A stretch of DNA of 64,000 nucleotides, taken from positions 1,229,206 through 1,293,205 of the forward strand of contig CAVQCN010000001.1 of the NCBI GenBank assembly GCA_963711035.1, in the 5' to 3' direction. The first letter of the stretch is position 1, and each line of letters opens with the position of its first letter. Below, piece by piece: positions 3,749 through 64,000 of this stretch. A model generated the notes under the pieces. It did no database searches and had not been told where the DNA came from. It saw only the letters and a list, made by a program, of their open reading frames with translations. This DNA comes from an uncultured Chloroflexia bacterium (GTDB lineage: Bacteria > Chloroflexota > Dehalococcoidia > DSTF01 > WHTK01). The position numbers were made by a program, and so were the translations under genes.

Positions 3749-3768
3749 AGGCGTCCTGTCGCTCGCGG

Positions 3769-5614: not shown

Positions 5615-6690
5615 GCGACTGCTTTGGGGCCGCCGTTGAGTAGCTGGTCGTAGATGCGGTCCATCTGCGCGACGTTCTTCTGCCAGTCGTACTGTCCGGC
5701 CACGTAGGCGCGTCCGGCCGCGCCGAGCTGGCGGCGCAGGGGAGCATCCTCTACCAGGACGGCGATGGCATCTGCCAGCGCTTTCGCGTCGCGGGGCGGT
5801 GTGAGGAAGCCGGTCTTGCCGTGACGCACCACGTCCGGGATGCCGTTGACGTTGGAGGCGACGACCGGCAGCGCCATGGCAGATGCCTCCACTGCGGCGA
5901 CGCCGAAGCCTTCGAACAACGACGGCAGCGCGAAGACGTCGAGCTCTTGCAGGAAGGCCGGCAGATCGTCGTGCTCCAGCCAGCCGCGGAACTCGATGCT
6001 GTCCTCGATGCCGAGACGGCGGGTCAGCGCCTGCAGACGGTCCTGCTCCGGCCCTTCGCCGGCGATCTTGAGGGTTACGCGGTCGCCGAAGCGGTGGCGG
6101 AGCAGGGCAAACGCCTCGATCAGGTACTCGAGGCCCTTTTCCTTCGACATGCGGGAGGCTGTACCGATGACGGCGCGTTTGACGTTGCGGCGCCGAGCCG
6201 GCTGGAAGCTCTCGATGTCGGCGCCGTAGGGAACGACGTTGACCGGCTTGCCGCGCGGCGCGTAGCGGCTCGTCTCGGTGGCCAGGTTGAGGCTTGTGGC
6301 CGTAATCGAGTCCGCGCGGGCCAGCGAGTATCGCGTCAGCCAGTGGTGGAAGGGAGTCAGGTTCGGTGCTTCCAGTACGTCGGTGCCCCAGACGGAGATG
6401 ATCAGCGGCCGGCAGCCGGACAGCGCTGAGAGGAAGCCATAGCTAGTCAGGTGTAGCGCGTGCACGAGGTCCGGCTCCATCTCCCGCACCATGCGGCCGA
6501 CGCGGCGAGCGTGGATCAGGTAGCGGGCCTTGCCCAGCCGCTCGGCGCCGTCGACGTAGTGGACACGAGCACCTTCGATCTCGGCTGGGCGGAAGGAGAT
6601 GACGTCGCAGTCGTAACCCTGGGAGACGGAGTGCTCGATCCAGCGTCGCGTATGGATGTACGGTGCGTCCGCCAGATAGACGACCTTCAT
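5611..6690 (-). CDS. GT4 (GT-B fold) glycosyltransferase
   Basis: C-terminal EGFGVAAVEASAMALPVVASNVNGIPDVV motif typical of the GT1/GT4 family. Confidence 0.85.
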   Translation of the reverse strand: MKVVYLADAPYIHTRRWIEHSVSQGYDCDVISFRPAEIEGARVHYVDGAERLGKARYLIHARRVGRMVREMEPDLVHALHLTSYGFLSALSGCRPLIISVWGTDVLEAPNLTPFHHWLTRYSLARADSITATSLNLATETSRYAPRGKPVNVVPYGADIESFQPARRRNVKRAVIGTASRMSKEKGLEYLIEAFALLRHRFGDRVTLKIAGEGPEQDRLQALTRRLGIEDSIEFRGWLEHDDLPAFLQELDVFALPSLFEGFGVAAVEASAMALPVVASNVNGIPDVVRHGKTGFLTPPRDAKALADAIAVLVEDAPLRRQLGAAGRAYVAGQYDWQKNVAQMDRIYDQLLNGGPKAVA

Positions 6691-8533: not shown

Positions 8534-9814
8534 CTATTTGACCGTGAAGGTACCGAACATGATGGTCGGGTGGACGTCGCAGCGGAAGAAGTAGGTTCCC
8601 GGTGCCGGCACGTCGAACACCACGTCGTCCAGGCCAGGTCCGGCGAACTGGACGCCGACGCTGCCATCTGCGACCGGCGTCAAGTCGCTCTGACTCTTGT
8701 AGACGGCGATGTTGTGCTTCACACCATCGTCCTTGTTGTCGAGCCGGATGCGGACCTTGCCGCCCGAGTTCACCGTGATGTCCTTCGTGTCGAACTGGAC
8801 GTTCTGGGCGGTGACGTTGACCGTCTGGCCTGTGAACGGCTCCACCGTGGATGGAGTGCCAGCCGGCGCCGGGGCCTGGGCCGTCTGACCGCAGGCCGAC
8901 TGCACGATAGTGGGCGACTCCGGCGGCGCCGGGAAGTTGTACACCATGTCACCGGCGGCGTGCTCGGCTGCCGCCGTGTTGAGCGAGGCCCGCTCCACTT
9001 CGACCGTCGTGCCGTCCTTGTCGATGTTCGTGACCGTCATGCGCTCGTCGCCGATGCGGATGTAGCCCTTGGCGGTGAAGTGCGAGCTGTCCTTGACGTG
9101 GATCGTCGTGTCGTCGGGCGTAATGGCCGCGGTCAACGGCGAAAGCTGATCGACGTGGTCGTCTTGAGCCTTTACAAGATCCCACCGGTTCTGCGTGATC
9201 AGGGTCATGAGCTGGTCGATCTGCTCGAAATTGAGAGGACCGCCGTATTGGTCAGACCAGGTAGGCATGGCCGTGCCGACACGGCCGCAGGTAATCGTGT
9301 TGGTGATGAGCGTTTCGTTCTGGGTAAGCGTGGCGGAGGCGAAGAGCTGAATCGCCGCTCCCGAGAGGTGCGATTCGGCGGTGGTCCGATCGACGGCGCG
9401 CTTCACCGTGAGGGTGTTGTCGCTGACAGCAGTGACGTCCATGCGCTCGTTGTCGATGAGGATTAGGGCGCCGGCCTTGAACTTGGAGCCGTCAGTGACG
9501 TCGACAGTGGTGGCACTCGCAACCATGTCTGACGTGGTCGTCTGCTTGCTGTCGCTGAAGCCCTGCAGGGTGGGACGGTTGAGCGCCGGGGCGGCCGGGA
9601 GACGGCCGCCGGCCGCTCCACCTTGGCCGACGTCGCCGTGACAGAGACGGCAGTTCTGAGCAAAGATGATGGCGCCGCGCTCGGCCTGGGCCTGCTGGAA
9701 GTCCGCCTCGGCGCTGGTCTGGCGATTGGGGAGCCATGCGCCGTAGATGCCGACCGCGATCAGCATGAACATGAGCAGCGTCGCCATGATCAGGACCTGC
9801 TTACGCGTGTTCAT
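8534..9814 (-). CDS. Membrane-anchored monoheme cytochrome c fused to a C-terminal type-1 copper (cupredoxin) domain; putative electron-exit subunit of the bc complex
   Basis: N-terminal TM helix. CRLCH heme-binding motif at aa 55-59. Two ~55-aa internal repeats, aa 104-156 and 238-291. C-terminal HNIAVY...FFRCDVHPTIMF gives a His/Cys/His/Met copper ligand set. Confidence 0.75.
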   Translation of the reverse strand: MNTRKQVLIMATLLMFMLIAVGIYGAWLPNRQTSAEADFQQAQAERGAIIFAQNCRLCHGDVGQGGAAGGRLPAAPALNRPTLQGFSDSKQTTTSDMVASATTVDVTDGSKFKAGALILIDNERMDVTAVSDNTLTVKRAVDRTTAESHLSGAAIQLFASATLTQNETLITNTITCGRVGTAMPTWSDQYGGPLNFEQIDQLMTLITQNRWDLVKAQDDHVDQLSPLTAAITPDDTTIHVKDSSHFTAKGYIRIGDERMTVTNIDKDGTTVEVERASLNTAAAEHAAGDMVYNFPAPPESPTIVQSACGQTAQAPAPAGTPSTVEPFTGQTVNVTAQNVQFDTKDITVNSGGKVRIRLDNKDDGVKHNIAVYKSQSDLTPVADGSVGVQFAGPGLDDVVFDVPAPGTYFFRCDVHPTIMFGTFTVK

Positions 9815-9862
9815 CGGTCAGCACCATCGTTCTCTTGCCGATAACTCATCAGCCGTTCCTGC

Positions 9863-10903
9863 CTAACCTTCTGCTTGTACTGCAAAGCTTGCGTTATCGG
9901 TCGTGCCCTTCGTGATTGCACCGGTGTCGACGCTGATGTTGCCGCCGTTGATGGTGAGCTTCATGTGGTCCATCGAACGCGGGGCCGGTCCGTATACACG
10001 GTGGCCAGCGTCGTCGTATGTCGAGCCGTGGCAGGGGCAGCGGAACCAGCCCTGGCGGTCCTTGCCGTCGAGGCCTTTCCACGTGAACGTCGGGTTCCAC
10101 GGGACGGTGCATCCCAGGTGAGGGCACTTCCACCACAGTGCTAGATAGCCAGCCTTACCCGTTTCGGGGTCGCTGCGCTTGGCCTGCTCTTCAGTCAGGT
10201 TGACCAGCCAGAAGTGGCCGGCAACGATCTGCGTTTTGGTGCCAGGAGGGAACTGGTCCACGCTGCCAGCTTGCACGACGCTACCGAAGCCGGTGACGCC
10301 GCGCGGGTAGAGCATGTCGACCAGGGTGCCGCCGAAGGCGGCCAGACCGGCCAGCAGACCAGTCCAGAACGTGATGCGAAGCAGGCCGCGGCGAGAGATC
10401 TCGCGCCGCTCGACGCGCTCAATAGCAATGGCGGCGCCGGCGGCCGATTGCGCGGCCAGCGTCTGGTTGGAAACAGGCTCAATGAGCTGTCCGCCGGGGC
10501 CGACGATGGCAACGGCCTGCTCTTGCGGCGCCGCTTCCATCTCGCGCTGGATGTTGCTCATCCAGGCGCTACCGGAGCCGATCGCGAGCGGTACGGCGGC
10601 GATGAACGCGCCATACTCCCAGTCGTAGATCAGGCCGGCGGCGATGCCGACGATACCGAGAGCCAGGACGACAGGCCAGTAGCTCGGCCCGGGAGCCTGC
10701 TCCTCTTCCTCGTGTTCCGGTTCCACTGCCGGCGGGGGCCCGGCAACTTCGCGTGCCTCGAGGATCCAGCCGAGCAGGGCGATGATCACGACGCAGGCAC
10801 TGGCGTACGAAAGCGAACTCGTGACGGGCTGAATAATGGTCACAACGATCATCGCCAGAGCGAGACCAAAGATCGCAGGCCACCAACTCAAGCGCTCATT
10901 CAT
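9863..10903 (-). CDS. Rieske [2Fe-2S] subunit with three N-terminal TM helices and an internal twin-arginine motif
   Basis: CPHLGCTV...CPCHGSTY Rieske boxes. EISRRGLLRITFW lies just before TM3. Confidence 0.9.
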   Translation of the reverse strand: MNERLSWWPAIFGLALAMIVVTIIQPVTSSLSYASACVVIIALLGWILEAREVAGPPPAVEPEHEEEEQAPGPSYWPVVLALGIVGIAAGLIYDWEYGAFIAAVPLAIGSGSAWMSNIQREMEAAPQEQAVAIVGPGGQLIEPVSNQTLAAQSAAGAAIAIERVERREISRRGLLRITFWTGLLAGLAAFGGTLVDMLYPRGVTGFGSVVQAGSVDQFPPGTKTQIVAGHFWLVNLTEEQAKRSDPETGKAGYLALWWKCPHLGCTVPWNPTFTWKGLDGKDRQGWFRCPCHGSTYDDAGHRVYGPAPRSMDHMKLTINGGNISVDTGAITKGTTDNASFAVQAEG

Positions 10904-10965
10904 CGCACGCCCTCCTATCTAGAAGTTCTTTCGTAGCCGGCGTCTTCTGCCAGCGTGGTTTCTGC

Positions 10966-12006
10966 TTACCCGTCAATGTGAGGCACATGCCACGGCCAGA
11001 CTAGCTCCTGCCCCTGACCTCGGAAGGCTGAACCGATGATCGTCATCGTCCAGTAGGCGGCGATGAAGCCACTGAAGAGACAGAGCAGTACGTCGCGCCG
11101 TGTGCGTATCCAGCGGATGCGCCACAGGAGGTAAACCAGGAAGGCGGGTAGCGCGGTCATGATGATCGTCGGGATCAGGATCTCGACCAGGAAGGCCGGG
11201 AAGTTCAGGTTGAGGTCGTAGGGCAGAAGGCCCGTGAACCAGCCCGGCAGATTCTGGTACCACTGTGGTGGGTGACCGCCGTGGTGGCCGAGAAAGTGCC
11301 AGGGCCAGGAAGTGCCGTTGAGTGGCAGAGGAATCTGGCTGAAGTCCTGAGGCCAGTTGAGCCGGCCGTCGTGACCGGAGCCCTGGAGCAGTGGCACCAG
11401 ACCTCCCAGGTCGGTGCTCCATTTCCAGTCGGTCTGGATCGAGCGCGTGTTGGGGCTGAGGACCAGATCCCAGACGGCCTGGATGAAGCCGACATGGGGC
11501 AGCCAGCTGGGGCGGTCTGCACCTGTCGGCCAGTTACTGCCGGTGATTTTCTGGTACGCGCTGACATGCTCGCTGAAATCCCAGAGGATGAGGAGCGTGG
11601 TCGTGACGGCCGAAAAAACGGCGGAGAAGATCGAAATTCTGACGGCGTTTGCCGTCCCGAACCAGGTGCCCTGGCCCTCCTTGCTGCGGTCGAAGTACGG
11701 GACGGCTGCCAGGAGGATCAAGAAGACCGTCGGCACGATGACACCGGCGAGGGCCGGGTTCATGTGCAGCAGCAACTCCTGCAGGTTGAGGAAGTACCAC
11801 GGAGCCTTGGACGGGTTCGGCGTGACGTTGCCGTTGGCCCGGTTGATCAACGGCGCGTTCGCGATCGCCGAGATGATCGTGAAGCTGAAGGTGAAGAGGA
11901 CGGCACAGATGAACTCGACAAATACGAGGTCCGGCCAAACGAGGAGTTCCTCTTCTCGTTCGCGGCGGGGTCGTACCTGTGAGGGCGAAGAAGTAACTGC
12001 TGCCAA
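10966..12006 (-). CDS. Cytochrome b C-terminal half / subunit IV (PetD-like) with a long Trp-rich C-terminal extension
   Basis: PWYFLNLQELLLHMNPALAGVIVPTVFLILLAAVPYFD is PetD-like. About 190 extra residues carry additional TM helices. Confidence 0.8.
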   Translation of the reverse strand: MAAVTSSPSQVRPRREREEELLVWPDLVFVEFICAVLFTFSFTIISAIANAPLINRANGNVTPNPSKAPWYFLNLQELLLHMNPALAGVIVPTVFLILLAAVPYFDRSKEGQGTWFGTANAVRISIFSAVFSAVTTTLLILWDFSEHVSAYQKITGSNWPTGADRPSWLPHVGFIQAVWDLVLSPNTRSIQTDWKWSTDLGGLVPLLQGSGHDGRLNWPQDFSQIPLPLNGTSWPWHFLGHHGGHPPQWYQNLPGWFTGLLPYDLNLNFPAFLVEILIPTIIMTALPAFLVYLLWRIRWIRTRRDVLLCLFSGFIAAYWTMTIIGSAFRGQGQELVWPWHVPHIDG

Positions 12007-13869: not shown

Positions 13870-14147
13870 CGGTTAGCTGCGAGTTGCGAGCCGCGGGCTC
13901 CGAGCCACGAGGGAGGCCCTGGATTGCGTGAGCAGGGATGTAATTCTCATAGTCCTGCTTAGATTAGAAGCTGGGCTTGGCTTGCACCATTCGGGCGCGC
14001 CCTCATTCGGCAACTCGCTGAATCAGCTCCGATAGCATCCGCTTCACTTCGTTCAGACTTCTGATAGATATCAAGTGTGAGCTGGTGCGCCATGTTCCCG
14101 AGAGCTTTCCAAATCGCGCATTAGCCATGCTCGAAGCTCGTAGCTCG

Positions 14148-15693
14148 CTAGTGTCTGAAATGACGCTCGCCCGTAAAGACGACGGCCATGTTGGCCGCGT
14201 CCGCGAGGCCTACGACCTCCTCGTCGCGGACGGAGCCGCCCGGCTCGATGATGGCAGTGACGCCCGCCGCGGCGGCTGCTGCGACGCCGTCGAAGAAGGG
14301 GAAGAAGGCGTCCGAGGCGAGGACGCTGCCGCGCGCCCGCTCGCCGGCGCGCTCGACGGCGAGGCGCACGCTGGTGACGCGGTTGGGCTGGCCGGCGCCC
14401 ATGCCCAGCAGCGTGTTGTCCTTCGCGAGGACGATGGCGTTCGACTTGATGTGCTTGCAGGCGCGCCAGGCGAAGCGTAGATCGGCGAGCTCGTCCTCCG
14501 TCGGCTCGCGTTTGCTGACGACGCGCAGCTGCAGCGATCCGTCGGGCTTGCTGGTCCGGTTCCTGCAGTAGGAAGCCGCCGCTCACGCGGCGCAGATCGT
14601 AAGGCGTAGCGTCGCCGGGCGTCACGGCCAGGATGCGCGCGTCGCGCCAGCGGGTCAGCGCTGCCAGCGCCTCCTCGCTGAAGCCGGGCGCCACGACGAT
14701 GTCGTAGCGCATGCGCTGGCCGCTGCTGGGGCTGATGCTGGCCCGCATCGCCTGCGCCAGCGTGCCGTCGATGGGCCGGTTGCAGGCGACGATGCCGCCG
14801 AAGGCCGAGATCGGGTCGCCGCTCAGGGCGCGGGCGTAGGCGGCGGTGAGGTCATCGTCGCTGGCGAGGCCGCAGGGGTTGGTGTGCTTGATGACGGCGA
14901 CGGTCGGCGCCTCGAAGTCGCTGACCGTGCGCCAGGCTGCATCGGCGTCGAGCACGTTGTTGAACGAGATCGGCGCGCCGTGCAGCTGCTGGGCGTGGAC
15001 GATGCCGCGGTCACCGCTGCCGGGCTCCTCGTAGAGGACGGCGGCCTGGTGCGGGTTCTCGCCGTAGTGCAACGAGGTCAGGCGGCGTAGGCCGACCGTG
15101 AGCTCTGCCGGCCATTCGGCGTCCGTGCCGCGCAGGTATCCCGAGACCATCGTGTCGTAGAGCGCGACGTGCTGGAACGCTTTGGCCGCAAGCGCCTGGC
15201 GCGCATCGGGAGGCAGGCCGCCGTCGCGCAGCGCCGCCAGGGCGGCGTCGTAGTCGGCCGGGTCGCAGAGGACGACGACGTCCGGGAAGTTCTTGGCGGC
15301 GGCGCGCAGCATGGCCGGCCCGCCGATGTCGATGTTCTCGAGCGCGTCGTTCAGCGTGACGTCGGGCCTGGCGATCGTTGCCTCGAAGGGATAGAGGTTG
15401 TTGGCGACGAGGTCGATGTTGGCGAAGCCCTGCTCTTGCATCTCGCGCATGTGCTGCGGGTTGTCGCGGCGGGCGAGCAGGCCGCCGTGGATCGCCGGGT
15501 GCAGCGTCTTGACGCGTCCGTCCAGCATCTCCGGCGAGCCGGTGACGGCGGCGACGCTGGTGACCGGCAGGCCGGCGTCGCGTAGCGCCTTCTCGGTGCC
15601 GCCGGTGGCCAGCAGCTCCCAGCCGAGGTCGACGAGGCCGCGGGCGAACTCGACGAGGCCTGTCTTGTCATAAGGGGCGAGCAGCGCGCGCAT
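14148..15693 (-). pseudogene. purH: purH (bifunctional AICAR transformylase / IMP cyclohydrolase) interrupted by a frameshift near 14530-14560
   Basis: The N-terminal 390 aa are canonical PurH. The 540-aa ORF then runs into Arg-rich nonsense. The PurH C-terminus ([35 protein letters not shown]...[13 protein letters not shown]...[10 protein letters not shown]) resumes in another frame, ORF 14148..14402. Confidence 0.8.
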
Positions 15694-45296: not shown

Positions 45297-48200
45297 GTGT
45301 TTAAGCCTGTCCCGACCCGCATCGACTACGTCGAGCTCGAGCATGAGGTGCAGGCCTGGTGGGACGAAAACCAGGTCCTGCAGCAGTACCTGCGCCGCAA
45401 TCAGCACTCGCACCAGCGCTGGTCCTTCATCGACGGGCCGATCACGGCCAACAACCCCATGGGTGTGCACCACGCCTGGGGCCGCTCCTACAAGGACCTC
45501 TACAACCGCTTCTGGACGCTTCGCGGCCACAAGCTGCGCTATCAGAACGGCTTCGACTGTCAGGGCCTCTGGATCGAGGTCGAGGTCGAGAAGGAACTCG
45601 GCTTCACCTCGAAGCACGACATCGAGGACTACGGCGTCGCCGACTTCGTCGAGGCCTGCAAGGAGCGGGTGCGGCGCTTCTCCGCCATCCAGACCGACCA
45701 GTCGAAGCGTCTCGGTTACTGGATGGACTGGGACAACAGCTACTTCACCAACTCGGACGAGAACAACTACACGATCTGGGGCTTCCTCAAGAAGTGCTGG
45801 GAGAAGGGCTGGATCTACAAAGGCAAGGACACGATGCCGTGGTGCCCCCGCTGCGGCACCGGCATCTCGCAGCACGAGATCGTCACCGAGGGCTACCAGG
45901 AGATCACGCACAAGTCCGTCTTCCTCAAGTTCCCCTTGACGGGCCGTGCTGAAGGAGCTGAGGGATTCATCCCTCAGGGGAACGAGAGCCTCCTCGTCTG
46001 GACGACGACGCCCTGGACGCTGGCGGCGAACATCGCTGCCGCCGTGCATCCCGATCTCACCTACCTCAAGGTGAAGCAGGGCGACGACGTGCTCTACGTG
46101 TCGCAGGGCGCCGTCGCCAACGCGATCCGCGGCGAGCACGAGGTGATCGGCGAGGTGAAGGGCAGCGAGCTCGTAGGTCTCACCTACAGCGGTCCGTTCG
46201 ACGAGCTGCCCGTGCAGAACGGCGTGCGCCATCGCGTCATCCGCTGGGATGAGGTCAGCGATGCCGAAGGTACCGGCATCGTCCACATCGCTCCGGGCGC
46301 CGGCGCCGAGGACTTCGCGCTGTCGAAGGAGTACGGCCTCGACGTCATCGCGCCGCTGGAGGAAGACGGCACCTACATCGTCGACGGCGGCTTCGGCTTC
46401 CTCGAAGGCCGTTTCGCCGGCGACGTGGCCGACGACGTCTTCGCCAGCCTGCGCGACAAGGGCATCCTCTACCGCGTGCAGGAGTACCTGCACCGCTACC
46501 CGACCTGCTGGCGCTGCGGCTCCGAGCTCGTCTTCCGCCTGGTCGACGAGTGGTTCATCTCCATGGACGAGCTGCGTTTCAAGATCATGGACACGACACG
46601 GCAGGTGCGCTGGATCCCCGACTTCGGCGAGGCGCGCGAGATCGACTGGCTGCGCAACATGCACGACTGGATGATCTCGAAGAAGCGCTACTACGGCCTC
46701 GCCCTGCCCATCTTCGACTGCCACGCCTGCGGCAACTTCGAGATCATCGGCTCGGAGACGGAGCTGCGCGAGCGCGCCGTCGAGGGCTGGGACCAGTTCG
46801 AAGGCCACAGCCCGCACCGTCCCTACATCGACGCGGTGAAGATCGCCTGCAGTAGCTGCGGCGCCACCGTCGAGCGCATCAGCGACGTCGGCAATCCATG
46901 GCTGGACGCCGGCATCGTGCCCTTCTCCACCCTCGAGTATCGCCACAACCTGGACTACTGGAAGCAGTGGTTCCCGGCCGACTGGGTGTCGGAGAGCTTC
47001 CCGGGCCAGTTCCGCAACTGGTTCTACGCCCTGCTCACCATGGGCACCGTCATGGTGCTCGACACGGATCACGAGGGCGACCCGCCGTTCAAGACGCTGT
47101 TCTCGCTACGGCGCCCTGCGCGACGAGCACGGCGAGGAGATGCACAAGTCGAAAGGCAACGCCATCTGGTTCGAGGACGCCGCCGAGCGCATGGGCTCCG
47201 ACGTCATGCGCTGGCTGTTCATGCGCGCGAACCCGGCCAACAACCTCAACTTCGGCTGGGGCGCCGGCGACGAGCTGAAACGCGGTTTCCTCTCGACGCT
47301 GTGGAACACGTACTCGTTCTTCGTGACGTACGCCAACATCGACGGCTGGACGCCGGGCGGCACTCTCGCTCCGTCCCTCTTCCAGGGCTCGGAAGGCATG
47401 GAAACCGACCCGCACTCGGGCAGAGCGATGGCCAGCCAGGCGATCCTCACCGAGCTGGACCGCTGGGTGCTGTCCGAGCTCAACTCCCTGGTGCAGGTGG
47501 TTACCACGTCGCTGGAGAACTACGACTCGATGACCGCCTGCCGCCAGATGGAGGAGTTCGTCGAGGGCCTCTCGAACTGGTACGTGCGCCGCAGCCGGCG
47601 CCGCTTCTGGAAGCCCGTGCTCGAAGGGGACGGCGACACAGAGACCGATCCCGACAAGCAGGCGGCCTACGAGACGTTGTGGACCTGCCTCGAGACGCTG
47701 AACCGCCTCATGGCGCCGTTCATGCCCTTCCTGGCCGAGGACGTCTACCGCAACCTCGTCTGCAGCTGGAGCGACGACGCGCCGGCCAGCGTGCACCTCG
47801 CCGACTGGCCCGAGGTCAACGAGAGCTTGATCGACGAGGAGCTCTGTCCGCGTCGGTTCGCCTGGTGCAGCGCCTCGTCTCCCTGGGCCGCGCGGCGAGG
47901 TCGAAGGCGAACCTGCGCGTGCGCCAGCCCCTTGCGACGGTGCACGTGCGCGTCCTCAACGACCGGGAAGCGCACACGATCCGCGAGCTCGCCGAGCAGG
48001 TCACCGAAGAGCTGAATGTTAAGGCGCTCGAAGTGATCGGCGACGAGTCCGGCTTCTTCGAGTACCAGGTGCGCCCCAACCTGCCCGTGCTCGGTCCGAA
48101 GTACGGTAGCGACGTCGGCCGCATCCAACGCGCTCTCGCAGCCGCCGACAAGGCTTCGATCGCGCGGGCCGTGAGCAGCGGCCAGACGGTGACGCTGGAC

Positions 48201-48572
48201 GGCATCGAGCTGCTGCCGGGCGAGTTGCTGGTCAGCCTCACGGGCAAGCCCGGCTTCGCGGTCGCCGAGGAGGCAGGCTACGCCGTCGCCGTCACGACGG
48301 ACGTGACGCCGGAGCTGGCGGACGAGGGCCTGGCGCGCGAGCTGGTGCGCCGCGTCCAGGAGATGCGCAAGAACGCCGGCTTCGAGATTGCCGACCGCAT
48401 TCGCCTCAGCTTCGACGGCGACGCGGACGTGGAGCGCGTCATGGAGTCGTGGGGCGAATACATCCGCCAGGAGACGCTCTCGGAAGCGATCGCTGCAGGC
48501 GCGGACGGGGGCTACCGTGAAGACCACGAGATCGACGGCCGCAAGCTGAGCCTCGGCGTCACGCGTATCTAG
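45297..48572 (+). pseudogene. ileS: Isoleucyl-tRNA synthetase carrying two compensating frameshifts, about 47104 and about 47850
   Basis: HIGH region (PMGVHHAWG) and ~600 aa of canonical IleS. From FKTLFSLRRPARR the main frame becomes Arg-rich nonsense. The KMSKS region (EEMHKSKGN) and the following 240 aa read in the +1 frame (ORF 47140..48015). The original frame then resumes (VRLVQRLVSLGRAARSKANLRVRQPL...). Confidence 0.85.
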
Positions 48573-55898: not shown

Positions 55899-56258
55899 TG
55901 GCCTTGGCTGATGAGCCGCCATCTGGTCAGCGGTTGCCCTCCTCACTCCGCATCCGGGAGGCTGCTTCGTCCCCGCCCCTTTCGAGGGAGGAGAATCGGG
56001 AGGACACCTCCCGAACCCACCGCGCATGGGCTTCGTCCCCGCGACCCTTGCTGGCATTTCCCTCCGACTGAGGGTAGCCCTTGCAGAGCCATGCCCTACT
56101 GCCATTCGGAAGTGTTGGGGCCGGCGCGTGGCTGGGCTTGCAAACCGGTTTAGTGACCTCCGCTTCGCCTATTGTTGCCGTTCGACGGGAAGTAGCCTGT
56201 TTCAGTCCCGATTCGCGGTTGGGGAGACCGCAAACGTTTCGATCTCCGGGGAGAATGC

Positions 56259-57545
56259 GTGACGTCTATCCAGGCCTCGTCCGGGAGGAAGGTCTTCTAC
56301 GGCTGGAAGGTGCTGGGCGTCAGCGTGGCCGGCGCCTTCCTGGCGGCGACGACCTCCCAGCTGTTCATGGGGGCCATGCTGCCCGACATCCAGGACGGCA
56401 CCGGCTGGAGTCGCAGCTCGATCACGCTGGGCGTGACGCTGGGCAGCATGACGGCCGGCTTCGTGGCGCCGTTCTTCGGCCGGCTGGCCGACCTGTACGG
56501 CTCGCGGATCCTGAGCTCGATTGGCGCCGTCGTTTCGGCGGCTGGGCTTTGTCTCATTGCCCTGAGCGCGACGGCAGGCATCCTCGTCTTCTACGCCGGC
56601 TTCATCGTGGCGCGGGCCTCGTCCGCCAACATGCTTTCGGGTGTGGTGCCGCGCACGACGATTGTGAACTGGTTCCGGCGCCGTCGCGGCCGGGCGCTGG
56701 GGCTGCTGAGCATGGCGATCCCGCTGGGCGGTGCGGCCCTCGTGCCCATCGCCAAGCTGGTCAGCGACCTCTACGGCTGGTCGACGGTGTTCTACGCCGT
56801 CGGCGTTGCCATGCTGCTTCTGCTGCCCGTGCTGGCGCTGGTGCTGCGCCGCCGGCCGGAGGACCTTGGCCTGCAACCGGACGGCGACGAAACACCCGCG
56901 GTTTCCGCTGAGCTGCAACCTGCCGCAAGGGACCCCGACGACGACTGGAGCCTGCGCCAGGCGATGCGCACGCCGCCCTTCTGGCTGCTCATCGGGGCCC
57001 TCACCTGCGGCACGTTTGCCAATGGTGGCGTCGGCTTTCACCAGGCCGCGTATTTCGAGGACCAGGGCGTTTCCACCGCCGCCGTAGCGTTGGCGATTAG
57101 CACCTATGCCATTTCAGGCGCCTTTGCCAACGGCCTCTGGGGTTTCCTGGTCGAGTACGTCTCGGAGCGGCTCCTGGGCGCGCTGACTCTGTTCTCGGCG
57201 GCCCTGCTGCAGCTGTTTCTGCTCACCGTAGCTTCGCCGGTCGGCGCGGTGCTCTTCGCCGTGGGCTTCGGCCTGTCGGCGCGGGGCCAGCAATCGATCA
57301 TCGTGGTGATGCAGGCGAAGTACTTCGGCCGCGGCTCCTTCGGCGCCATCTCCGGTTTCTCGACACCGTTCCAACAGATCTCGCTGGGCCTCGGTCCCAT
57401 CGTGGCGGCGCTTATCTACGACGCCTCAGGCGCCAGCTACACGATTGCCTTCCTGCTCTTCGGAGTCATGTTCGCGATTGCCGCGTCCCTGGTCTGGCTG
57501 GCGAAGCAGCCGTCGCTGCCGCCGGAGGGTGGTTCGGTGGCCTGA
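56259..57545 (+). CDS. MFS transporter
   Basis: Twelve TM helices. GRLADLYGSR loop motif. Confidence 0.8.
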   Translation: MTSIQASSGRKVFYGWKVLGVSVAGAFLAATTSQLFMGAMLPDIQDGTGWSRSSITLGVTLGSMTAGFVAPFFGRLADLYGSRILSSIGAVVSAAGLCLIALSATAGILVFYAGFIVARASSANMLSGVVPRTTIVNWFRRRRGRALGLLSMAIPLGGAALVPIAKLVSDLYGWSTVFYAVGVAMLLLLPVLALVLRRRPEDLGLQPDGDETPAVSAELQPAARDPDDDWSLRQAMRTPPFWLLIGALTCGTFANGGVGFHQAAYFEDQGVSTAAVALAISTYAISGAFANGLWGFLVEYVSERLLGALTLFSAALLQLFLLTVASPVGAVLFAVGFGLSARGQQSIIVVMQAKYFGRGSFGAISGFSTPFQQISLGLGPIVAALIYDASGASYTIAFLLFGVMFAIAASLVWLAKQPSLPPEGGSVA

Positions 57546-57553
57546 CGACCGGT

Positions 57554-59074
57554 TCAGGCGCTGTCGGAGACGGTGGCCGACGCGTGCGGATAGCCGGTCG
57601 CGCCCGACGGATACGGGTCGGCGACCTGCTTCGTCTGCACCTGGCCGTCACCGTCCGTTGCGCGCGCGACGATGTTGAGGTTCTTGGCGGCGGGCTTCGA
57701 GGTGATGTCGTAGTACCAGAGCACCCACGTGTACGGCGACAGCGCCGGTTTCAATGTGGCGTCCGCCCACGTCGTGCCGTCATCGAGCGAGACCTCGACC
57801 TTGCTGATGCCGCGGTTGCCGGAGAACGCGATGCCGTGGATCCGGTAGGGGAGGCTCTCGATCGACGTGTGGACGTAAGGCACGTCGATGCGGGTCGAGG
57901 TGTTCATGCGCCCGACCTCGTCCCAGCCGCGCTGCTCCCAGTAGCCGAGCGTCTCCTTCGAGGAGAGGGCAATCTCGGTGATCCACTTCGGACCTTTGAA
58001 GCCGTACTTGCCGGGAGCGATCATGCGCAACGGATAGCCGTGCTTGGAGGGCAGCGTCTCGCCGTTCATCTGCCACACGAGCATGACGGACTCGTTCATG
58101 ACGAAGTCGAGCGGCAGGCACTGCGTGAAGTCATCGGCCGCCTTGAAGGCGACGAAGTTCGCGCCGGGCCTGGGCTGCGCCATGTCCAGCAGGTCCTTGA
58201 GCGGGAAACCGCGCCACAGGGCGTTGCTGATCAAGTCGCCGCCGACCTCATTGCTGATGCACTGCAGCGTCGTGTACTGCTCGCGTGAGGGCAGGGCTTT
58301 GATCTCGTCGTAGGTGAACTCGAGCATGTTCTCCGCCTCGCCGCCGACGCGCAGCCGCCAGGAGCCGGCGTCGACCGTCGGGTCGAAGAGGTTCTTGGAG
58401 ACGAGGTAGAAGTTTTCGTTGGGCGTGATCTCGGGAGTCGGATCGCCGGTGGGGCCGCTGCTCTGCACGCCGCCGTGGCTCGTCTTCAGCACCTGGCGGG
58501 CCACGATGTACAACGCCAGCCCGGCGGTGAGGATGGGCAGCGCGCCCAGGAAGCGGCGCCGCGATGGTGCTTCGGCGCCCGCGGTGGCAGGCTCCGGTTC
58601 GCGTGTCGGCAGCAGCGTGATCATCGTGGTGGTCGCGACGACGCCGAAAACGGCGCAGCGTGCCGCGGTCAGCAGGCCGTACTCGAGCCAGGTCGTGTGG
58701 CTGCCGAGCTGCGCCTTGGTCAGCACGATGAGGGCGGCGGTGGCGACCATGAGAGCCAGCCAGGCGGCGCCGGCGGCGAACACCACCTTGGTGCGCAGCG
58801 CGAGGAGCTGCCAGACGACCACGTACAGCGCCAGCTCGCCCAGGATGACCGACGTGAAGAGCAGGGGCTTGCCGACGGGGCCGAGCTTCTCCAGCAGGAA
58901 GGCGAAGCCACGCGGCTGCAGCGTGTCGCTGCTGGCGTCAACGACGATCTCGGCCAGCAGCTTGCCGTCGATAACCTCGCGCAACAGCAGGCCGACCGCG
59001 ACCGCGCAGACGCCGCCCACGAGGGGCGGCAACAGCATTGTGGTCAGGGATGGTCGCGATAGGTCGTCTTGCAT
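57554..59074 (-). CDS. Polytopic membrane protein with a C-terminal sulfite-oxidase-fold molybdopterin domain and an internal twin-arginine motif
   Basis: About 150 aa with four TM helices, then APSRRRFLGALPILTAGLALY (Tat-like motif), then the SUOX-family Mo domain (LQCISNEVGG...PLRMIAPGKYGFKGPKWI). Confidence 0.8.
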   Translation of the reverse strand: MQDDLSRPSLTTMLLPPLVGGVCAVAVGLLLREVIDGKLLAEIVVDASSDTLQPRGFAFLLEKLGPVGKPLLFTSVILGELALYVVVWQLLALRTKVVFAAGAAWLALMVATAALIVLTKAQLGSHTTWLEYGLLTAARCAVFGVVATTTMITLLPTREPEPATAGAEAPSRRRFLGALPILTAGLALYIVARQVLKTSHGGVQSSGPTGDPTPEITPNENFYLVSKNLFDPTVDAGSWRLRVGGEAENMLEFTYDEIKALPSREQYTTLQCISNEVGGDLISNALWRGFPLKDLLDMAQPRPGANFVAFKAADDFTQCLPLDFVMNESVMLVWQMNGETLPSKHGYPLRMIAPGKYGFKGPKWITEIALSSKETLGYWEQRGWDEVGRMNTSTRIDVPYVHTSIESLPYRIHGIAFSGNRGISKVEVSLDDGTTWADATLKPALSPYTWVLWYYDITSKPAAKNLNIVARATDGDGQVQTKQVADPYPSGATGYPHASATVSDSA

Positions 59075-59128
59075 GGCACCGGCCCCGATTCATCGGCGAC
59101 TTTGCCAGTGCATCATACCGTCGAGTTA

Positions 59129-59497
59129 TTACGAAGCCCTTACACTCGGCCGTCGTGAGCGGGTCGAGGACTTGTTCTGGGGCGCGGCTTCTTTAGTCGT
59201 CAGGTGGTGTACCTGCGTGTCGAGCTCGCCTACCCTCGTGCGCAGGCCAGAGAGCTCCTCCTTGAGTTCGAGCATCTCAGTCAGGGCGTCGGCCAGCAGG
59301 ACGTCGCTCTGGCTGATCGTCGCGTTGTCGTAGGCTCCGCGGTCCGAGGTAATGGGATGCGTCGACGTATCCGCTGTTGGGGACCTCGGAACGAAGGTGT
59401 GACGCTGCGGGATCGGCATCGAGCGTTCCGACAGAGCCATGTAGATGGCGGCGCCGCCCATGAACATGAGCAGCGGGATGACGAGCAGCATTTCCAT
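59129..59497 (-). CDS. Hypothetical small membrane-anchored coiled-coil protein
   Basis: N-terminal TM (LLVIPLLMFMGGAAIYMAL). C-terminal heptad-like ELKEELSGLRTRVGELDTQVHHL. Confidence 0.4.
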   Translation of the reverse strand: MEMLLVIPLLMFMGGAAIYMALSERSMPIPQRHTFVPRSPTADTSTHPITSDRGAYDNATISQSDVLLADALTEMLELKEELSGLRTRVGELDTQVHHLTTKEAAPQNKSSTRSRRPSVRAS

Positions 59498-59603
59498 CGT
59501 CCACCTCCAGAAGGGGTGGAATCACCATAGACCCGCGATTCGTCGAGGCGAATCAGGAAAGCCCCTATCTCCGCGGCCATCTTTCCGGAGGTGTGATCCC
59601 TAG

Positions 59604-60002
59604 CTACGACCTCTGGACGATCTGCGTGAGCACGCCGCCCGTCATCGAGGGGTGGACGAAGACCATGCCTTTCACCGGGTTGCCTTCGCCGGGGTCGCCG
59701 ACCAGCCGGATGCCCTTGGCTCGCAGGTCAGAGAGCGTCGCGTTGATGTCGTCGACGCGTGCCGCGATCATGTAGACGCCTTCGCCCGACGTGGCGACGC
59801 GCCGGCCTACCGGTCCCGCCTCGTCGGTTGGGCATACAAGCTCGACGTAGCTGTCCGCGAGCCGGAAGTAGACGTTCTCGAAGCCGGCGCCTTCGGTGGC
59901 GTGTCGCTCCGTGGCCGGGACGCCGTAGATCGCCTCGTACTGCTTGATGCTGGCGTCGAGGTCTTTGACCGCGATGACGACGTGGTCGATGTCCTTGAAC
60001 AT
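59604..60002 (-). CDS. Methylmalonyl-CoA epimerase / VOC (glyoxalase) family protein
   Basis: IDHVVIAVKDLDASI...GIRLV... paired beta-alpha-beta-beta-beta modules. Confidence 0.8.
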   Translation of the reverse strand: MFKDIDHVVIAVKDLDASIKQYEAIYGVPATERHATEGAGFENVYFRLADSYVELVCPTDEAGPVGRRVATSGEGVYMIAARVDDINATLSDLRAKGIRLVGDPGEGNPVKGMVFVHPSMTGGVLTQIVQRS

Positions 60003-60148
60003 GGTCTGATTCCTCCTCCTATTACAGGTACCGCGCCTCCGGATTCTCGCCCATTCGGGGGCGGGAGGCTACTCGGTCGATCGATGGGCCATCCTGCGCT
60101 CGGATCGGCGACGAACGGCCCTACGCCGCTGCCGGAGGCAGCGTCATA

Positions 60149-60430
60149 GTGGTGGTGGAGGTGGTCATGGTGGACAAGGAGACCTTCAAGCTCGACGTCA
60201 ACGACATGAGCGAGAAGCTCAAGCAGCTCCTGCACGAAGGCAACGTCCGGCGCATCTCCGTCAAGCGCGGCGATGACGTAATCGCCGAGTTTCCACTGAC
60301 GGCAGCGGTGGTCGGTGCGGTGATTGCGCCGGTACTGGCGGCCGTAGGCGCCATTGCCGCGCTGGTAACGGACTGCACGATCGAGGTGGAGCGGACGGAT
60401 GCAAGCGAGGAGCAGGAGCCGCAGAGCTAA
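60149..60430 (+). CDS. DUF4342 domain protein
   Basis: KLKQLLHEGNVRRISVKRGDDVIAEFPLTAAVVGAVIAPVLAAVGAIAALVTDCTIEVER matches the DUF4342 signature. Confidence 0.7.
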   Translation: MVVEVVMVDKETFKLDVNDMSEKLKQLLHEGNVRRISVKRGDDVIAEFPLTAAVVGAVIAPVLAAVGAIAALVTDCTIEVERTDASEEQEPQS

Positions 60431-60457
60431 TCGCAAAAATCGACAAGGGGGTAAAGG

Positions 60458-60961
60458 ATGAAAGCCCTGGTCGTAGTTGATTCCAGGTTTGGCAACACGG
60501 AGGAGTTGGCGCGCATCATCGGCGACGCGCTGGTCGACAACTATGTGGTCGAGATCGTCAAGGCTCCGGCGCCGCTGCCGGCGGGCGAGTTCGACCTCGT
60601 CGTTGTAGGCGGACCGACGGAGGGGCACGGCATCAGCGTCAATCTGCGCCGCAGCCTCGGTGGCATATCGCGTCCCGATCTGAAGGGCGCGAAGGCGGCG
60701 GTCTTCGACACGCGTTTTCGCATGCCGCGCTTCCTCACCGGCTCGGCGGCCTCCGGTGCGGCGTCCCGCCTGCGCAAGGCCGGCTGCCAGCTGGTAGTCG
60801 AGCCCGAGAGCTTCTTCGTGCAACGCTCCAAGGCGCCCGAGGGCGAGCCACAGCGGGACGCTATCTTACTCGACGGCGAGAAGAGAGCGGGCAGAGCAGT
60901 GGGCGCTGGCGCTGTTGCAGCGCCTGGCGCTATCGCACGAGGCGCAGCGCGTCTGACATGA
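60458..60961 (+). CDS. Flavodoxin-like domain protein
   Basis: MKALVVVDSRFGNTEELA...DLVVVGGPTEGHG flavodoxin fold motifs. Confidence 0.7.
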   Translation: MKALVVVDSRFGNTEELARIIGDALVDNYVVEIVKAPAPLPAGEFDLVVVGGPTEGHGISVNLRRSLGGISRPDLKGAKAAVFDTRFRMPRFLTGSAASGAASRLRKAGCQLVVEPESFFVQRSKAPEGEPQRDAILLDGEKRAGRAVGAGAVAAPGAIARGAARLT

Positions 60962-60989
60962 CCGTGGGGGCGAGGACGAAGCTGGGCAG

Positions 60990-61440
60990 CGGCCACCTAT
61001 TTGGTGTCGCTGCCCTTGGCTTTCAATGTCGGGAACTTGTCGAAGTCTGATCACGACCGAGTCGATGGGTCCGCTGTCATTCGCCGCCGACCCCGCTTTC
61101 GACGGACGTGATGATCCGTTGGCAAACGTGGCGGAAACGTGGTGTTGACGCTGCCATCATCGGCTTGCTTGAGAGCCTCGAAGTGGCCCGTCTTGATCGA
61201 CTTGCCGGAAGCAGCCACCTGCATGAGCTTCGGCGTGCCGCCGTCCGTCGGTTTGAGGAATTTGATGTCAAACGAAGATGGCTCGGAATTCCCTGTGTTG
61301 CCTTGGTTAGTAACCGGTGACCTCGTGCGATTCCATGTTCAGCGAGAGGATGTCGATGTCCCCCTTGTGGCCGGGGACTTTGCTCTCGCCCTCGATTTTA
61401 TTTCCGTCCGCGGTCACGAGGTTGGCAACTCCCCAGGCCA
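60990..61440 (-). pseudogene. Hcp-family (type VI secretion tube-like) pseudogene fragmented over three reading frames
   Basis: Frame 1: VANLVTADGNKIEGESKVPGHKGDIDILSLNMESHEVTG (compare Hcp MAVDMFIKIGDVKGESKD.THAEEIDVLAWSWGMSQ). Frame 2: SSFDIKFLKPTDGGTPKLMQVAASGKSIKTGHFEALKQADDG (compare VQDLSFTKYIDKSTPNLMMACSSGKHYPQAKLTIRKAGG). Frame 3: RIITSVESGVGGE (compare VLVSSVSTGGSGGED). It then returns to frame 1 (PIDSVVIRLRQVPDIE). Confidence 0.55.
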
Positions 61441-61688
61441 CCGGTTTCTTTGGCTTTGGCCTCGTCGCTCTTATTCGGCGCCCGCTGCACAAGGAGGCGC
61501 TGCACGGCCTGATTGCCGATGGTGCGCTGCAGCCCGAGGATGCGCGCGGGGGAGAGGCCCGAAAGGGCGTGCGGGCGGACGCCGATCTCGGGGCGAGCCT
61601 TCGGCTGTTCTCGCAGCTCGTGCTTGCCCGACCGATGCCGGTGCAGCGGTGCCGCGCTGTGATGTGTCCGATTCATCAACTTGGCCAT
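61398..61688 (-). pseudogene. Orphan N-terminal leader fragment carrying the LQRTIGNQAVQRLL motif, typical of the N-termini of DUF4157 / eCIS-associated toxin-like proteins. It is truncated after 96 codons and overlaps the Hcp-like fragment in another frame.
   Basis: MAKLMNRTHHSAAPLHRHRSGKHELREQPKARPEIGVRPHALSGLSPARILGLQRTIGNQAVQRLLVQRAPNKSDEAKAKETGG. No downstream catalytic domain. Confidence 0.45.
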
Positions 61689-61824
61689 CTATGTGCCTTG
61701 AAGTCTATGGGGACCTCCGGGGAAATACAAGGCAGGAAGAAGGCTTCGTCGATTACCCCCGGGCCCATTGCGTCCAATAGTGACGATGCCAGAGGCGTTG
61801 ACACGGGAATGCAGCGTGCTGATG

Positions 61825-61913
61825 TGGTGCCGAAGGTGGGACTCGAACCCACACGAGGTGTTAGCCTCAACGGTTTTTGAGACCGTCGCGTCTGCCTATT
61901 CCGCCACTTCGGC
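61825..61913 (-). tRNA. tRNA-Leu (anticodon CAA) with a long variable arm and encoded CCA
   Basis: Acceptor GCCGAAG/CTTCGGC. D-arm GTGGCGGAATAGGCAGAC. Anticodon stem-loop ACGGT-CTCAAAA-ACCGT. GGTTCGAGTCC T-loop. ...CACCA 3' end. Confidence 0.85.
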
Positions 61914-62229
61914 GCGAGGTGAGCGAGAGCTAGTCTAGAGTTCGCCGCCCGGCGCGGGCAAGCTCCGGTACTCGTCCGAAACGGGAGCCGGCGATTGGTG
62001 GCCTCCCGCTGGCGGGGCGTGCATGATCCTGTGGTAAACGTCCCTCTATTGCCGGTTCGCTGCTAGGCCGCGGTCACCCGTGTTGGGCGGCTCGGTCCGA
62101 GGTCAACGCCTGAACAAATGATCGCTAGACAGCCAAGGTAGCACCGTGGATAGTCCGCCTAGCGATCCAGGCCGCCCGGATTGAATCGTTTCCCCGCCCC
62201 CGCCGCGCTAGCTTGAGGTAAGGAGACCC

Positions 62230-62784
62230 TTGAAGTCGCTAGTTCTTGTCGTCCTTGCACTGGGCGCCATCGGGGGCGCACTCATCGTACCGGCCGCTGC
62301 TCAGGATGGAGAGGTAACGGCCAAAGTCACACCACTTATGATCGCGGTAAACGTCTCATCGAGCCAAATCGATTACGGCAACCTGGAGCTGAGTCCGGCC
62401 GACAATGACAGGATGCACGCTGAGAGCGAGGCCATCACGGCCACCAACGTGGGAAATGTTCCCATCGACATGACGATATACGGTTCCAACGCCACTCCGG
62501 CCAATGGGGACGACGAGATCTGGACACTCGACTGTTCATCCGCTACCGGCGTGGTCGGGGACAATCAGTTCGTGCACCGCTTCTCGAAAGCAACTGGTCC
62601 GGTCTGGAACTCGTCAGACTCCAATACCCTCTGTCCATCCTCATCCCAGGCCAAGTCCCTGGCTTCGAATCTGCTGGCCGGGACCGGAGCGGTCGACTTC
62701 AGGCTGCGGCTCGATATGCCCACCAGCTCGACTGGCTATAGCCAGCGCTCGACCACCGTAACCATCGTTGCCGCCGCACATTAG
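62230..62784 (+). CDS. Secreted protein of unknown function (possible TasA/camelysin-like or pilin-like beta-sandwich)
   Basis: Signal peptide MKSLVLVVLALGAIGGALIVPAAAQD. Ser/Thr/Asn-rich mature part. Confidence 0.55.
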   Translation: MKSLVLVVLALGAIGGALIVPAAAQDGEVTAKVTPLMIAVNVSSSQIDYGNLELSPADNDRMHAESEAITATNVGNVPIDMTIYGSNATPANGDDEIWTLDCSSATGVVGDNQFVHRFSKATGPVWNSSDSNTLCPSSSQAKSLASNLLAGTGAVDFRLRLDMPTSSTGYSQRSTTVTIVAAAH

Positions 62785-63394
62785 AACGTTGACTGCGAGT
62801 CCGGTGAGGAAACTGCTCGCCGTCACGGTGTTGCTGTCGTTGTCCCTGTTCGCCATCGTTCACGCCGATCCGGGCGTCGGCGTGAACGTCGGTAGCATCG
62901 ACGTCGAGGACGAGCTGACGCCCGGCGGTGGCTACGACCTGCCTGGCGTGGGCGTCATCAACACCGGCGACGATGCGCTCGACTACACGCTGAGCGTCGG
63001 CTACGACGAGGGTCAGTCCGCGCTGCGTCCGCCCGAGGACTGGTTCGGCTTTCAGCCGTCGCGGTTTACGCTGGAGCCGGGCGCTGCCCGGGCGGTGAGC
63101 GTGCGACTCACCTTGCCCGCCAGCGCCCGGCCCGGCCACTACTTCGCTTACCTGGAAGCGCATCCAGTGGCTGCAGCCAATGGGGTGTCGGTGAGCGTGG
63201 CGGCCGCGACCAAGCTATCGTTCAGTGTGAAGCAGACGAGTTGGCTGGACGCGCAGCGGACGCGGCTCAATCGCTGGTTAGACGAGCATCAAACGCTCAT
63301 CTTTGTCGTGACCGGGACCGTTCTGCTCGGCTTGGCGCTCTGGACCTGGCGTCGCCTCCCTTTCGAGATAGCAGTGCGACGAAAGGGTGGTTGA
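62768..63394 (+). CDS. Exported protein with a C-terminal TM anchor; partner of the upstream secreted protein
   Basis: Signal LLAVTVLLSLSLFAIVHA. C-terminal TM LIFVVTGTVLLGLALWTW followed by RRLPFE. Overlaps the upstream gene by 17 nt. Confidence 0.55.
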   Translation: MPPHIRTLTASPVRKLLAVTVLLSLSLFAIVHADPGVGVNVGSIDVEDELTPGGGYDLPGVGVINTGDDALDYTLSVGYDEGQSALRPPEDWFGFQPSRFTLEPGAARAVSVRLTLPASARPGHYFAYLEAHPVAAANGVSVSVAAATKLSFSVKQTSWLDAQRTRLNRWLDEHQTLIFVVTGTVLLGLALWTWRRLPFEIAVRRKGG

Positions 63395-63556
63395 CGGCGC
63401 GTATGCAAGGTACCGAGTGCATGCGTGTAGCGGCAGGCCTAGATACCGATAACCACACATCGGCAATCCCGACAACTCGTGAGACTGGCGAAGATGCCAA
63501 CTGGCGACCTAGATGGGTCGCCAGTTGGGAGAAGCTTTGGGCAGGCTGACGTTGGG

Positions 63557-64000
63557 CTATGGGCGGTTCGCCGCCAGGCCGCCGTCGCCGGTGTTCGGCG
63601 GCTGGATGGTCGGCTGTGAGCCGGCTTGGGGCGCGACCGCCGTCGGCTGCGGCTGCTGGATCAGCGGACCGAAGAGGCCGCCGAGGTTAGGCCGGCTGAT
63701 CGGTCGAGGTGTTGGCGTGACTGTGGCTGTCGGAGAAGGTGTCGCCGTGTCCGACGGCGTGGCGGCAGGCGTTTCCGTTGGCTGTGGCGGCTGCAGCTCA
63801 TAGGCGCCGATGTCGCAGATGGGGCTGCCGTTGCCGTCGCCATCCTGAGGCCGCGAGACGCCGCGCTGGTCGATGCCGTTTACCGGGTCCGCGGCGCAGA
63901 TAGCGTTGTCGCCCGCATCGATGGCGTCGCTGCGGGGAAGCAGGGCGCGTGTCGTGGTTTGGCCGCCGTTGTTGTGCAGCGGACCCAGGTTGGGGTCGCC
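63557..64000 (-). CDS. 3' end of a large surface protein with a choice-of-anchor-Q / CSLREA-like terminal domain (partial; the N-terminus lies beyond the window)
   Basis: The minus-strand translation reads ...[68 protein letters not shown], followed by a Pro/Thr linker [25 protein letters not shown] and a stop near 63557. Confidence 0.55.

Follow-up and report, generated by a model that had tools for sequence, protein, structure and literature searches.

A leader-bearing Hcp gene beside tRNA-Leu in a Chloroflexota genome is probably intact and interrupted only by assembly indels

We analysed a stretch of 64,000 nucleotides, referred to here as the window, from an uncultured Chloroflexia bacterium (GenBank assembly GCA_963711035.1, contig CAVQCN010000001.1, positions 1,229,206 to 1,293,205 of the forward strand), and focused on a gene of the minus strand that lies next to tRNA-Leu(CAA) and is spread over several reading frames. 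An earlier note on this DNA had described the locus as a decayed gene for an Hcp-like tube protein with an orphan leader fragment, left over from a horizontally acquired injection-system or toxin cassette. Our analysis indicated instead that the locus is one intact, stand-alone gene in which an N-terminal leader is joined to an Hcp domain (leader-Hcp), that its frame breaks are indels of the assembly and not decay, and that the leader would act as an address tag; we place the probability of this reading at about 0.75. All coordinates are positions in the window, and plus and minus denote its strands.

The open reading frame (ORF) of 96 codons containing GLQRTIGNQAVQRLL was found next to the tRNA gene, as had been described. 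Its motif LQRTIGNQAVQRLL, at 61491-61532 on the minus strand, was unique among the six frames of the window. Hcp-like sequence followed 3' of this ORF on the same strand, and its spread across three frames was likewise confirmed. A first reconstruction, made by hand over the three frames, matched the Pfam profile T6SS_HCP (PF05638) with 58.1 bits (E = 1.5e-15) and Pseudomonas aeruginosa Hcp1 (PDB 1y12) with an E value of 2.7e-6, the latter match spanning the frame junctions; the frame-0 piece by itself cleared the gathering score of the profile (27.1 vs 23.5 bits). The gene was then repaired in a frame-aware manner, with the in-frame 3' end taken from the contig L124 described below, and the repaired protein scored 69.5 bits against T6SS_HCP, its closest intact relative (P0026) scoring 67.7 bits.

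A scan with the repaired protein yielded a metagenome contig of the Joint Genome Institute (JGI), L125, with an intact ORF of 211 residues, which aligns to residues 26-227 without a change of frame and runs in the order leader, short linker, Hcp domain. Furthermore, 15 intact relatives could be aligned with the repaired protein over its full length (25-41% identity), both 5' junctions being spanned. Hence the leader ORF encodes the N-terminal part of the Hcp protein and, judged from these alignments, leader ORF and Hcp pieces are one gene; the supposed orphan fragment is the beginning of the same protein, as in about 65 intact clusters. The window copy has a longer Hcp loop after ILSLTW, by about 14 residues, than L125 and the relative P0013. 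Several searches gave nothing: the reconstruction made first had no match in word-indexed protein searches even at E<=10 and no relative in a genome-contig scan, exact-protein look-ups of the broken window ORFs and several neighbouring ORFs matched no contig, and Pfam and NCBIfam had no match to the leader ORF alone. In an exhaustive search of representative proteins, the only matches to the 62-residue in-frame fragment were Hcp proteins of the six-fold tandem type (31-35% identity) and spurious repeat proteins. The proteins P0003-P0006 (1068-1486 residues) carry six tandem Hcp domains each, some of them with Calx-beta or dockerin domains, and might correspond to a single-chain hexamer.

The locus could alternatively be divided into two genes, one for a leader peptide of 96 residues and the other, overlapping it, for an independent Hcp protein with an internal GTG or TTG start. 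The GTG that encodes V in KKPVAWG and the TTG at 61492 could indeed start an Hcp ORF (MAWGVANLV...). However, leader and Hcp domain lie in one ORF with a similar linker in every intact relative, and the tail of the 96-residue ORF (GGLGSCQPRDRGRK) has no counterpart in any of them; we give this arrangement almost no credence.

Structure prediction was carried out for the relative P0026. An AlphaFold2 model based on the family alignment had a predicted local distance difference test score (pLDDT) above 90 for residues 80-212 and of about 50 for residues 1-78, where one helix (residues 44-52) extends into the beginning of the motif (residues 49-61). When the model was compared with the PDB by Foldseek, the top 50 matches were Hcp structures or Hcp1 fusion constructs, with target-normalised template modelling scores of 0.6-0.7. 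According to this model, which represents the relative and not the repaired window protein, the C-terminal domain is an Hcp beta-barrel fold.

A profile search based on the window protein and L125 gave about 65 protein clusters of 166-237 residues (P0013-P0077). Nearly all of them carried PF05638, and all but four had LQ(R/H)TIGNQAVQRL about 40-50 residues from the start. Every member with a named organism belonged to Chloroflexota, namely to metagenome-assembled genomes (MAGs) of Anaerolineae and Dehalococcoidia; examples are P0026 (GCA_964572535.1), P0023 and P0043 ('Anaerolineae bacterium') and P0061 ('Dehalococcoidia bacterium'), and the contig L192 is labelled Phototrophicaceae, a family of the same phylum. 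With the indels removed, the window gene has the organisation of this family, a single ORF of about 170-240 residues with the motif at about residues 40-50 and PF05638 after it; the raw ORF is interrupted. The family appears to be undescribed.

The genes of five relatives were located on their contigs. On L192, three tandem leader-Hcp paralogues lie between the AadA_C and ATP-sulfurylase genes (9282-11288), and the syntenic site of L196 holds one copy (3008-3634), which shows that copy number at this locus is variable. On L193 the gene (10001-10645) is surrounded by genes that lack annotation, and a topoisomerase, a DUF433/DUF5615 pair and a TraG/TrwB-like coupling protein are encoded nearby; this region may be a conjugative element. 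The gene on L198 adjoins a histidine kinase. On L199, the P0026 gene (452-1105) lies about 150 bp from a divergent tRNA-Gly(TCC) at 223-298, the second case of a leader-Hcp gene beside a tRNA.

The frame breaks are most probably single-base consensus errors of this assembly, as suggested by comparison with independent contigs. L124, a JGI metagenome contig of 1004 bp with about 99% identity, aligned to 60176-61180 of the window and covers the 3' 183 nt of the leader-Hcp gene together with the flavodoxin-like gene convergent with it, both of which are in frame there. The blastn alignment contained five mismatches and seven gaps, and all seven gaps were single-base indels within 60884-61138, one in the 3' end of the flavodoxin gene and six in the 3' end of the Hcp part. 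Compared with L124, the Hcp 3' end in the window contains three additional bases (A at about 61026, C at 61047 and A at 61079) and lacks three others (G at about 61033, C after 61114 and G after 61137); the last 60 Hcp codons of L124 read without interruption as EALKQADDGSVNTTLSATFANGVITSVESGVGGEDSGPIDSVVINFDKFPDMKAKGSDTK up to the stop codon. An 11-nt tandem duplication, considered for the frame change near 61140, was ruled out by the same alignment, in which that change is a single missing G. The flavodoxin-like protein of the window shares a 90% cluster with the JGI protein P0011 and is identical to it over residues 1-141, after which P0011 continues with ERAEQWALALLQRLALSHEAQRV, an alternative frame of the window sequence, to an intact C-terminus.

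Frameshifts were also observed in two other genes of the window. The purH gene (14071-15693, minus) is frameshifted near 14523-14582: its main ORF covers positions 1-256 of the AICARFT_IMPCHas profile, and an overlapping ORF in an alternative frame (14148-14582) covers positions 250-311. The ileS gene (45297-48572, plus) appears to quit its frame and return, with shifts within 47103-47458 and 47857-48015; its Anticodon_1 domain (E = 3.5e-28) lies in an alternative-frame ORF (47140-48015), and the ORF of 1091 codons is open by chance. Since purH and the essential ileS are frameshifted in the same window, the assembly carries indel errors.

The breaks do exist in the deposited sequence, are clustered in one non-essential locus (about nine in 570 nt) and mostly fall outside long homopolymers, and the locus could accordingly be a genuine pseudogene, several small indels having inactivated the leader-Hcp gene as well as the flavodoxin 3' end in this strain, with both intact in the JGI strain. 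However, natural decay gives more substitutions than indels. The 297-nt indel stretch contained seven indels and one substitution, the overall divergence being only about 0.5%, as against no indels and 11 substitutions in about 2.2 kb of flank (Fisher p = 1.6e-4), where a Logan contig aligned to 58593-60081 showed seven substitutions and no indels. This pattern is the opposite of decay and disfavours a pseudogene, as do the amino acids of each frame segment, which essentially match the intact strain, and the frameshifts in purH and ileS. The breaks were not reproduced independently: all seven indels that L124 could cover are absent from it, and no substitutional decay was seen. The earlier note had pointed to re-sequencing as a way in which the frame changes might vanish, and in L124 they largely did, six of the eight indels in the leader-Hcp gene being absent and two lying outside the contig. 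We regard a pseudogene as rather unlikely, and the description of the locus as decayed could not be upheld.

Subsequently, the leader was compared with other proteins. Its first 35 residues are hydrophilic and basic (mean Kyte-Doolittle value, -1.38; eight K+R vs three D+E). A degenerate DNA pattern for LQR..GNQA...LL matched at least 119 genome loci, among them loci of Chloroflexota, Actinomycetota, Acidobacteriota, Paenibacillus and even Methanoperedens, and the motif stood at a median of 50 residues from the start (120 ORFs among the matches listed). Among the matches listed, 96 complete motif-bearing proteins from genome contigs were sampled; PF13699 (eCIS_core, formerly DUF4157) was present on 32 of them, and single members carried PLDc_2, Ntox47, WHH, Colicin-DNase, Amidase_2, Polysacc_deac_1 or Peptidase_M91. 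The earlier statement that the motif is typical of DUF4157 proteins, effectors associated with extracellular contractile injection systems (eCIS) and toxins was thus borne out. At 24 random motif loci, the 108 neighbour ORFs included recurrent AAA (3), WHD (3), Pvc16_N (2) and eCIS_core (2) domains. The leader-Hcp protein P0013 and a protein of 380 residues, P0079, are 45% identical over residues 1-60 and show no likeness beyond, and the 60-residue leader is therefore modular.

Some leader-bearing proteins without an Hcp domain are worth recording. P0079 and P0080 (380-390 residues) have the P0013-type leader of 60 residues and no Pfam domain, and could likewise be cargo of this system. L003 (IMGVR_UViG_3300047160_017196), which is filed as viral, has two adjacent leader-bearing genes at 1821-4397, one with the identical 14-mer LQRTIGNQAVQRLL and no Pfam domain and the other with eCIS_core and a weak OmpA match. 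L075, a Solirubrobacteraceae MAG contig (CAVPQQ010000004.1), encodes a leader-bearing WHH/Colicin-DNase toxin (1326-2915) followed by a small ORF that may be an immunity gene, and an Hcp-domain protein with a Sec-like N-terminus (PF05638, 76 bits) at 5965-6633, about 3.4 kb downstream of the toxin.

DUF4157 is a core marker of eCIS (Geller et al. 2021, PMC8213781), and in the AlgoCIS cargo proteins Cgo1 and Cgo2 a disordered N-terminal domain is required for AAA+-dependent loading (bioRxiv 10.64898/2026.05.27.728243). The leader-Hcp protein has the hydrophilic N-terminus with LQxxxGNxAxxxL of such cargo, its disorder being indicated by the low pLDDT of the relative's model. However, it has no PF13699 domain, as no match was obtained with the reconstruction at E<=10 or with the repaired protein. 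Neither does the gene lie in or beside an operon for a contractile injection system (CIS; sheath, gp19 tube, baseplate, Pvc16_N, AAA+): the window is housekeeping in content and the loci of the relatives contain no such operon. In literature string searches, we found no paper that names the motif or PF05638 together with PF13699, and no report of loading by the motif in any system.

We propose that the leader is a modular address tag, as on eCIS_core/DUF4157 and toxin-domain proteins, and that it would direct its cargo to a CIS, or to an AAA+ loader associated with one, whose genes lie at another site of the genome. The ring that the Hcp domain probably forms could be either the delivered protein itself or a carrier or chaperone for a partner. 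We infer from the shared leader that packaging or export of the Hcp ring may be leader-dependent. More specifically, the leader-Hcp proteins could represent an undescribed CIS-associated class in a phylum without a type VI secretion system (T6SS), the ring being addressed by an eCIS_core-type leader and serving either as cargo or, for small effectors, as a chaperone or adaptor of the lumen type; this idea is tentative and in our estimate falls well short of even odds.

Several observations weigh against the combined reading of an intact gene with an address tag. The Hcp domain was found on none of the 96 sampled motif-bearing proteins, and a local Hcp hidden Markov model found no such domain on the 120 motif-bearing ORFs, both among the matches listed; at the 119 or more loci, one nearby Hcp gene was seen among the matches listed, that of L075, whose product begins with a Sec-like signal instead of the leader. 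No structural gene of a CIS was found in the window or in the relatives' loci, and therefore it is the leader that provides the whole link to a CIS. According to one published report, a conserved eCIS signal sequence has so far gone undetected (PMC11297309), and the motif can accordingly be put forward only as a candidate cargo signal. With regard to the frame breaks, those at about 61339 and 61448 fall outside all independent sequence and could be real. The indels moreover form a hot spot, with about nine in some 570 nt (60884-61448) vs about three frame changes in the other 63 kb, and our analysis cannot explain this local density.

Some members of the family are labelled 'type VI secretion system tube protein Hcp' in public records, and this name, together with the PF05638 match and the Hcp fold, would fit a canonical tube protein (TssD/Hcp) for a T6SS encoded elsewhere in the genome. 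However, the first reconstruction reached only 23.9 bits with the NCBIfam model of TssD, TIGR03344, vs a cutoff of 58.9 bits, and the N-terminal leader of about 85 residues is foreign to canonical Hcp. All named relatives are from Chloroflexota, a phylum in which we know of no T6SS. In agreement with the earlier note, neither CIS nor T6SS genes were found among the window ORFs scanned. Structural genes of either kind were likewise absent within 10 kb of the gene on L192, L193, L196 and L198 and from the 3-kb contig L199, and the T6SS core (TssB/C, baseplate, VgrG, TssM) was co-encoded in none of these places. Because of the leader, the phylum and the lack of T6SS genes in any context seen, a canonical tube role is unlikely, and we consider it highly improbable that the protein belongs to a T6SS located elsewhere in this genome.

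We also examined whether the locus is what remains of a horizontally acquired island, linked to the tRNA and carrying an injection system or toxin, as the earlier note had concluded. The leader-Hcp gene abuts the 3' side of tRNA-Leu, its closest relative, P0026, adjoins a tRNA-Gly, the gene of L193 lies in the region resembling a conjugative element, and the relatives sit in differing genomic contexts. However, no second copy of the 3' end of tRNA-Leu was found in the window with up to three mismatches allowed, so that the proposed attL/attR pair was not recovered, and no direct repeats involving tRNA-Leu were present within 56000-64000. No integrase ORF was present in the roughly 860 bp that separate tRNA-Leu from the flavodoxin gene; the leader-Hcp gene fills most of this interval and therefore leaves no room for one. 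At third codon positions, the G+C content of the leader was 0.82 and that of the Hcp part 0.77, both inside the range of the host genes (about 0.75-0.93); the lower total G+C content comes from codon position 1 and therefore reflects amino-acid composition, and no compositional deviation of the kind expected of an island was detected. In addition, the independent strain of L124 has the same arrangement of flavodoxin and leader-Hcp genes, and the window ORFs scanned included no CIS or T6SS gene. An island remnant is thus very unlikely.

The features of the locus are summarised in Table 1. The tRNA gene was the sole tRNA called by ARAGORN in the window and was located where the earlier note had placed it. 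The fifth residue of the annotated leader-Hcp protein, M5 (61676), may be the true start of the gene. The upstream element CATAGACT was also observed on L199, L192 (first copy) and L196/L197, 44-47 nt 5' of their starts, often with a TTG-containing hexamer about 17 nt further 5'. A simple scan called no sigma-70 promoter upstream of the leader-Hcp gene; on the basis of its conservation, the element is a possible -10-like promoter sequence. Elsewhere the window encodes core metabolism, including purH, purF, ATP synthase, ileS, sdhA, major facilitator superfamily transporters and a molybdopterin oxidoreductase. Past the tRNA, two consecutive ORFs of 184 and 208 residues with hydrophobic N-termini (62230-63394, plus) gave no significant Pfam match, only a weak one to NPCBM_assoc.

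Table 1 Features of the leader-Hcp locus, in window coordinates.
Feature	Position	Strand	Basis or remark
tRNA-Leu(CAA)	61825-61913	-	ARAGORN; same orientation as the leader-Hcp gene and directly upstream of it
Leader-Hcp gene	60997-61688	-	About 229 residues after removal of single-base indels; TAG stop at 60997-60999
96-codon ORF containing GLQRTIGNQAVQRLL	61398-61688	-	ORF translation
N-terminal leader: basic hydrophilic segment of about 50 residues, then motif LQRTIGNQAVQRLL	61491-61688	-	Sequence
Hcp (PF05638) domain, residues ~94-217 of the repaired protein	61036-61408	-	Pfam and PDB match
Flavodoxin-like gene, convergent with the leader-Hcp gene	60458-60961	+	Extra A at 60884 shifts the final 24 codons
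Upstream element CATAGACT	61702-61709	-	14 nt 5' of the annotated ATG (61688); about 31 nt from M5
Six single-base indels relative to L124	61026-61138		Alignment with L124
Two further frame changes	~61339 (ILSL/TWNR) and ~61448 (leader/Hcp junction)		Inferred from frame analysis and alignment of relatives

These findings carry a caution, in that consensus errors of one assembly can mimic decay over several frames; comparison with frameshifts in nearby essential genes and with near-identical independent contigs guards against a false call of decay. They also indicate that the annotation 'T6SS tube protein Hcp' in Chloroflexota covers stand-alone proteins that bear a conserved leader of the eCIS cargo type. 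If loading or export is what the leader signals, the Hcp fold would be handled by a machine other than a T6SS, and the short, near-invariant motif LQ(R/H)TIGNQAVQRL would offer a concrete candidate for the conserved signal of such cargo. Should the CIS-associated class prove true, the chaperone logic of T6SS Hcp would be linked to the phage-tail-like eCIS machines.

Among known systems, the window protein resembles Hcp/TssD (PF05638, e.g. Hcp1) in its profile score far above the gathering threshold, its sequence match to Hcp1 and the Hcp structural matches of its relative; it differs in the N-terminal leader, which canonical Hcp lacks, in its score below the TIGR03344 cutoff, and in having no T6SS gene alongside and relatives from Chloroflexota. 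Hcp-ET proteins of Enterobacteriaceae carry a C-terminal toxin extension on Hcp and are delivered by the T6SS. The window protein likewise has an Hcp domain fused to an extra module, whereas its extension is an N-terminal leader and includes no toxin domain. With eCIS cargo that carries DUF4157/eCIS_core it shares the motif LQ(R/H)xxGNQAxxRL about 45-50 residues in, after a hydrophilic basic segment, and genes with this motif encode eCIS_core or toxin domains, some of them adjoining Pvc16_N and AAA+WHD genes; in contrast, the window protein has neither PF13699 nor a toxin domain, its payload is the Hcp fold, and the leader-Hcp gene stands beside no CIS operon in the contexts examined. The closest counterparts are the other leader-Hcp proteins of Chloroflexota: although the window copy is broken by single-base indels in the deposited sequence, it agrees with them in length class, leader, Hcp domain and stand-alone gene, and several of them share the upstream element CATAGACT.

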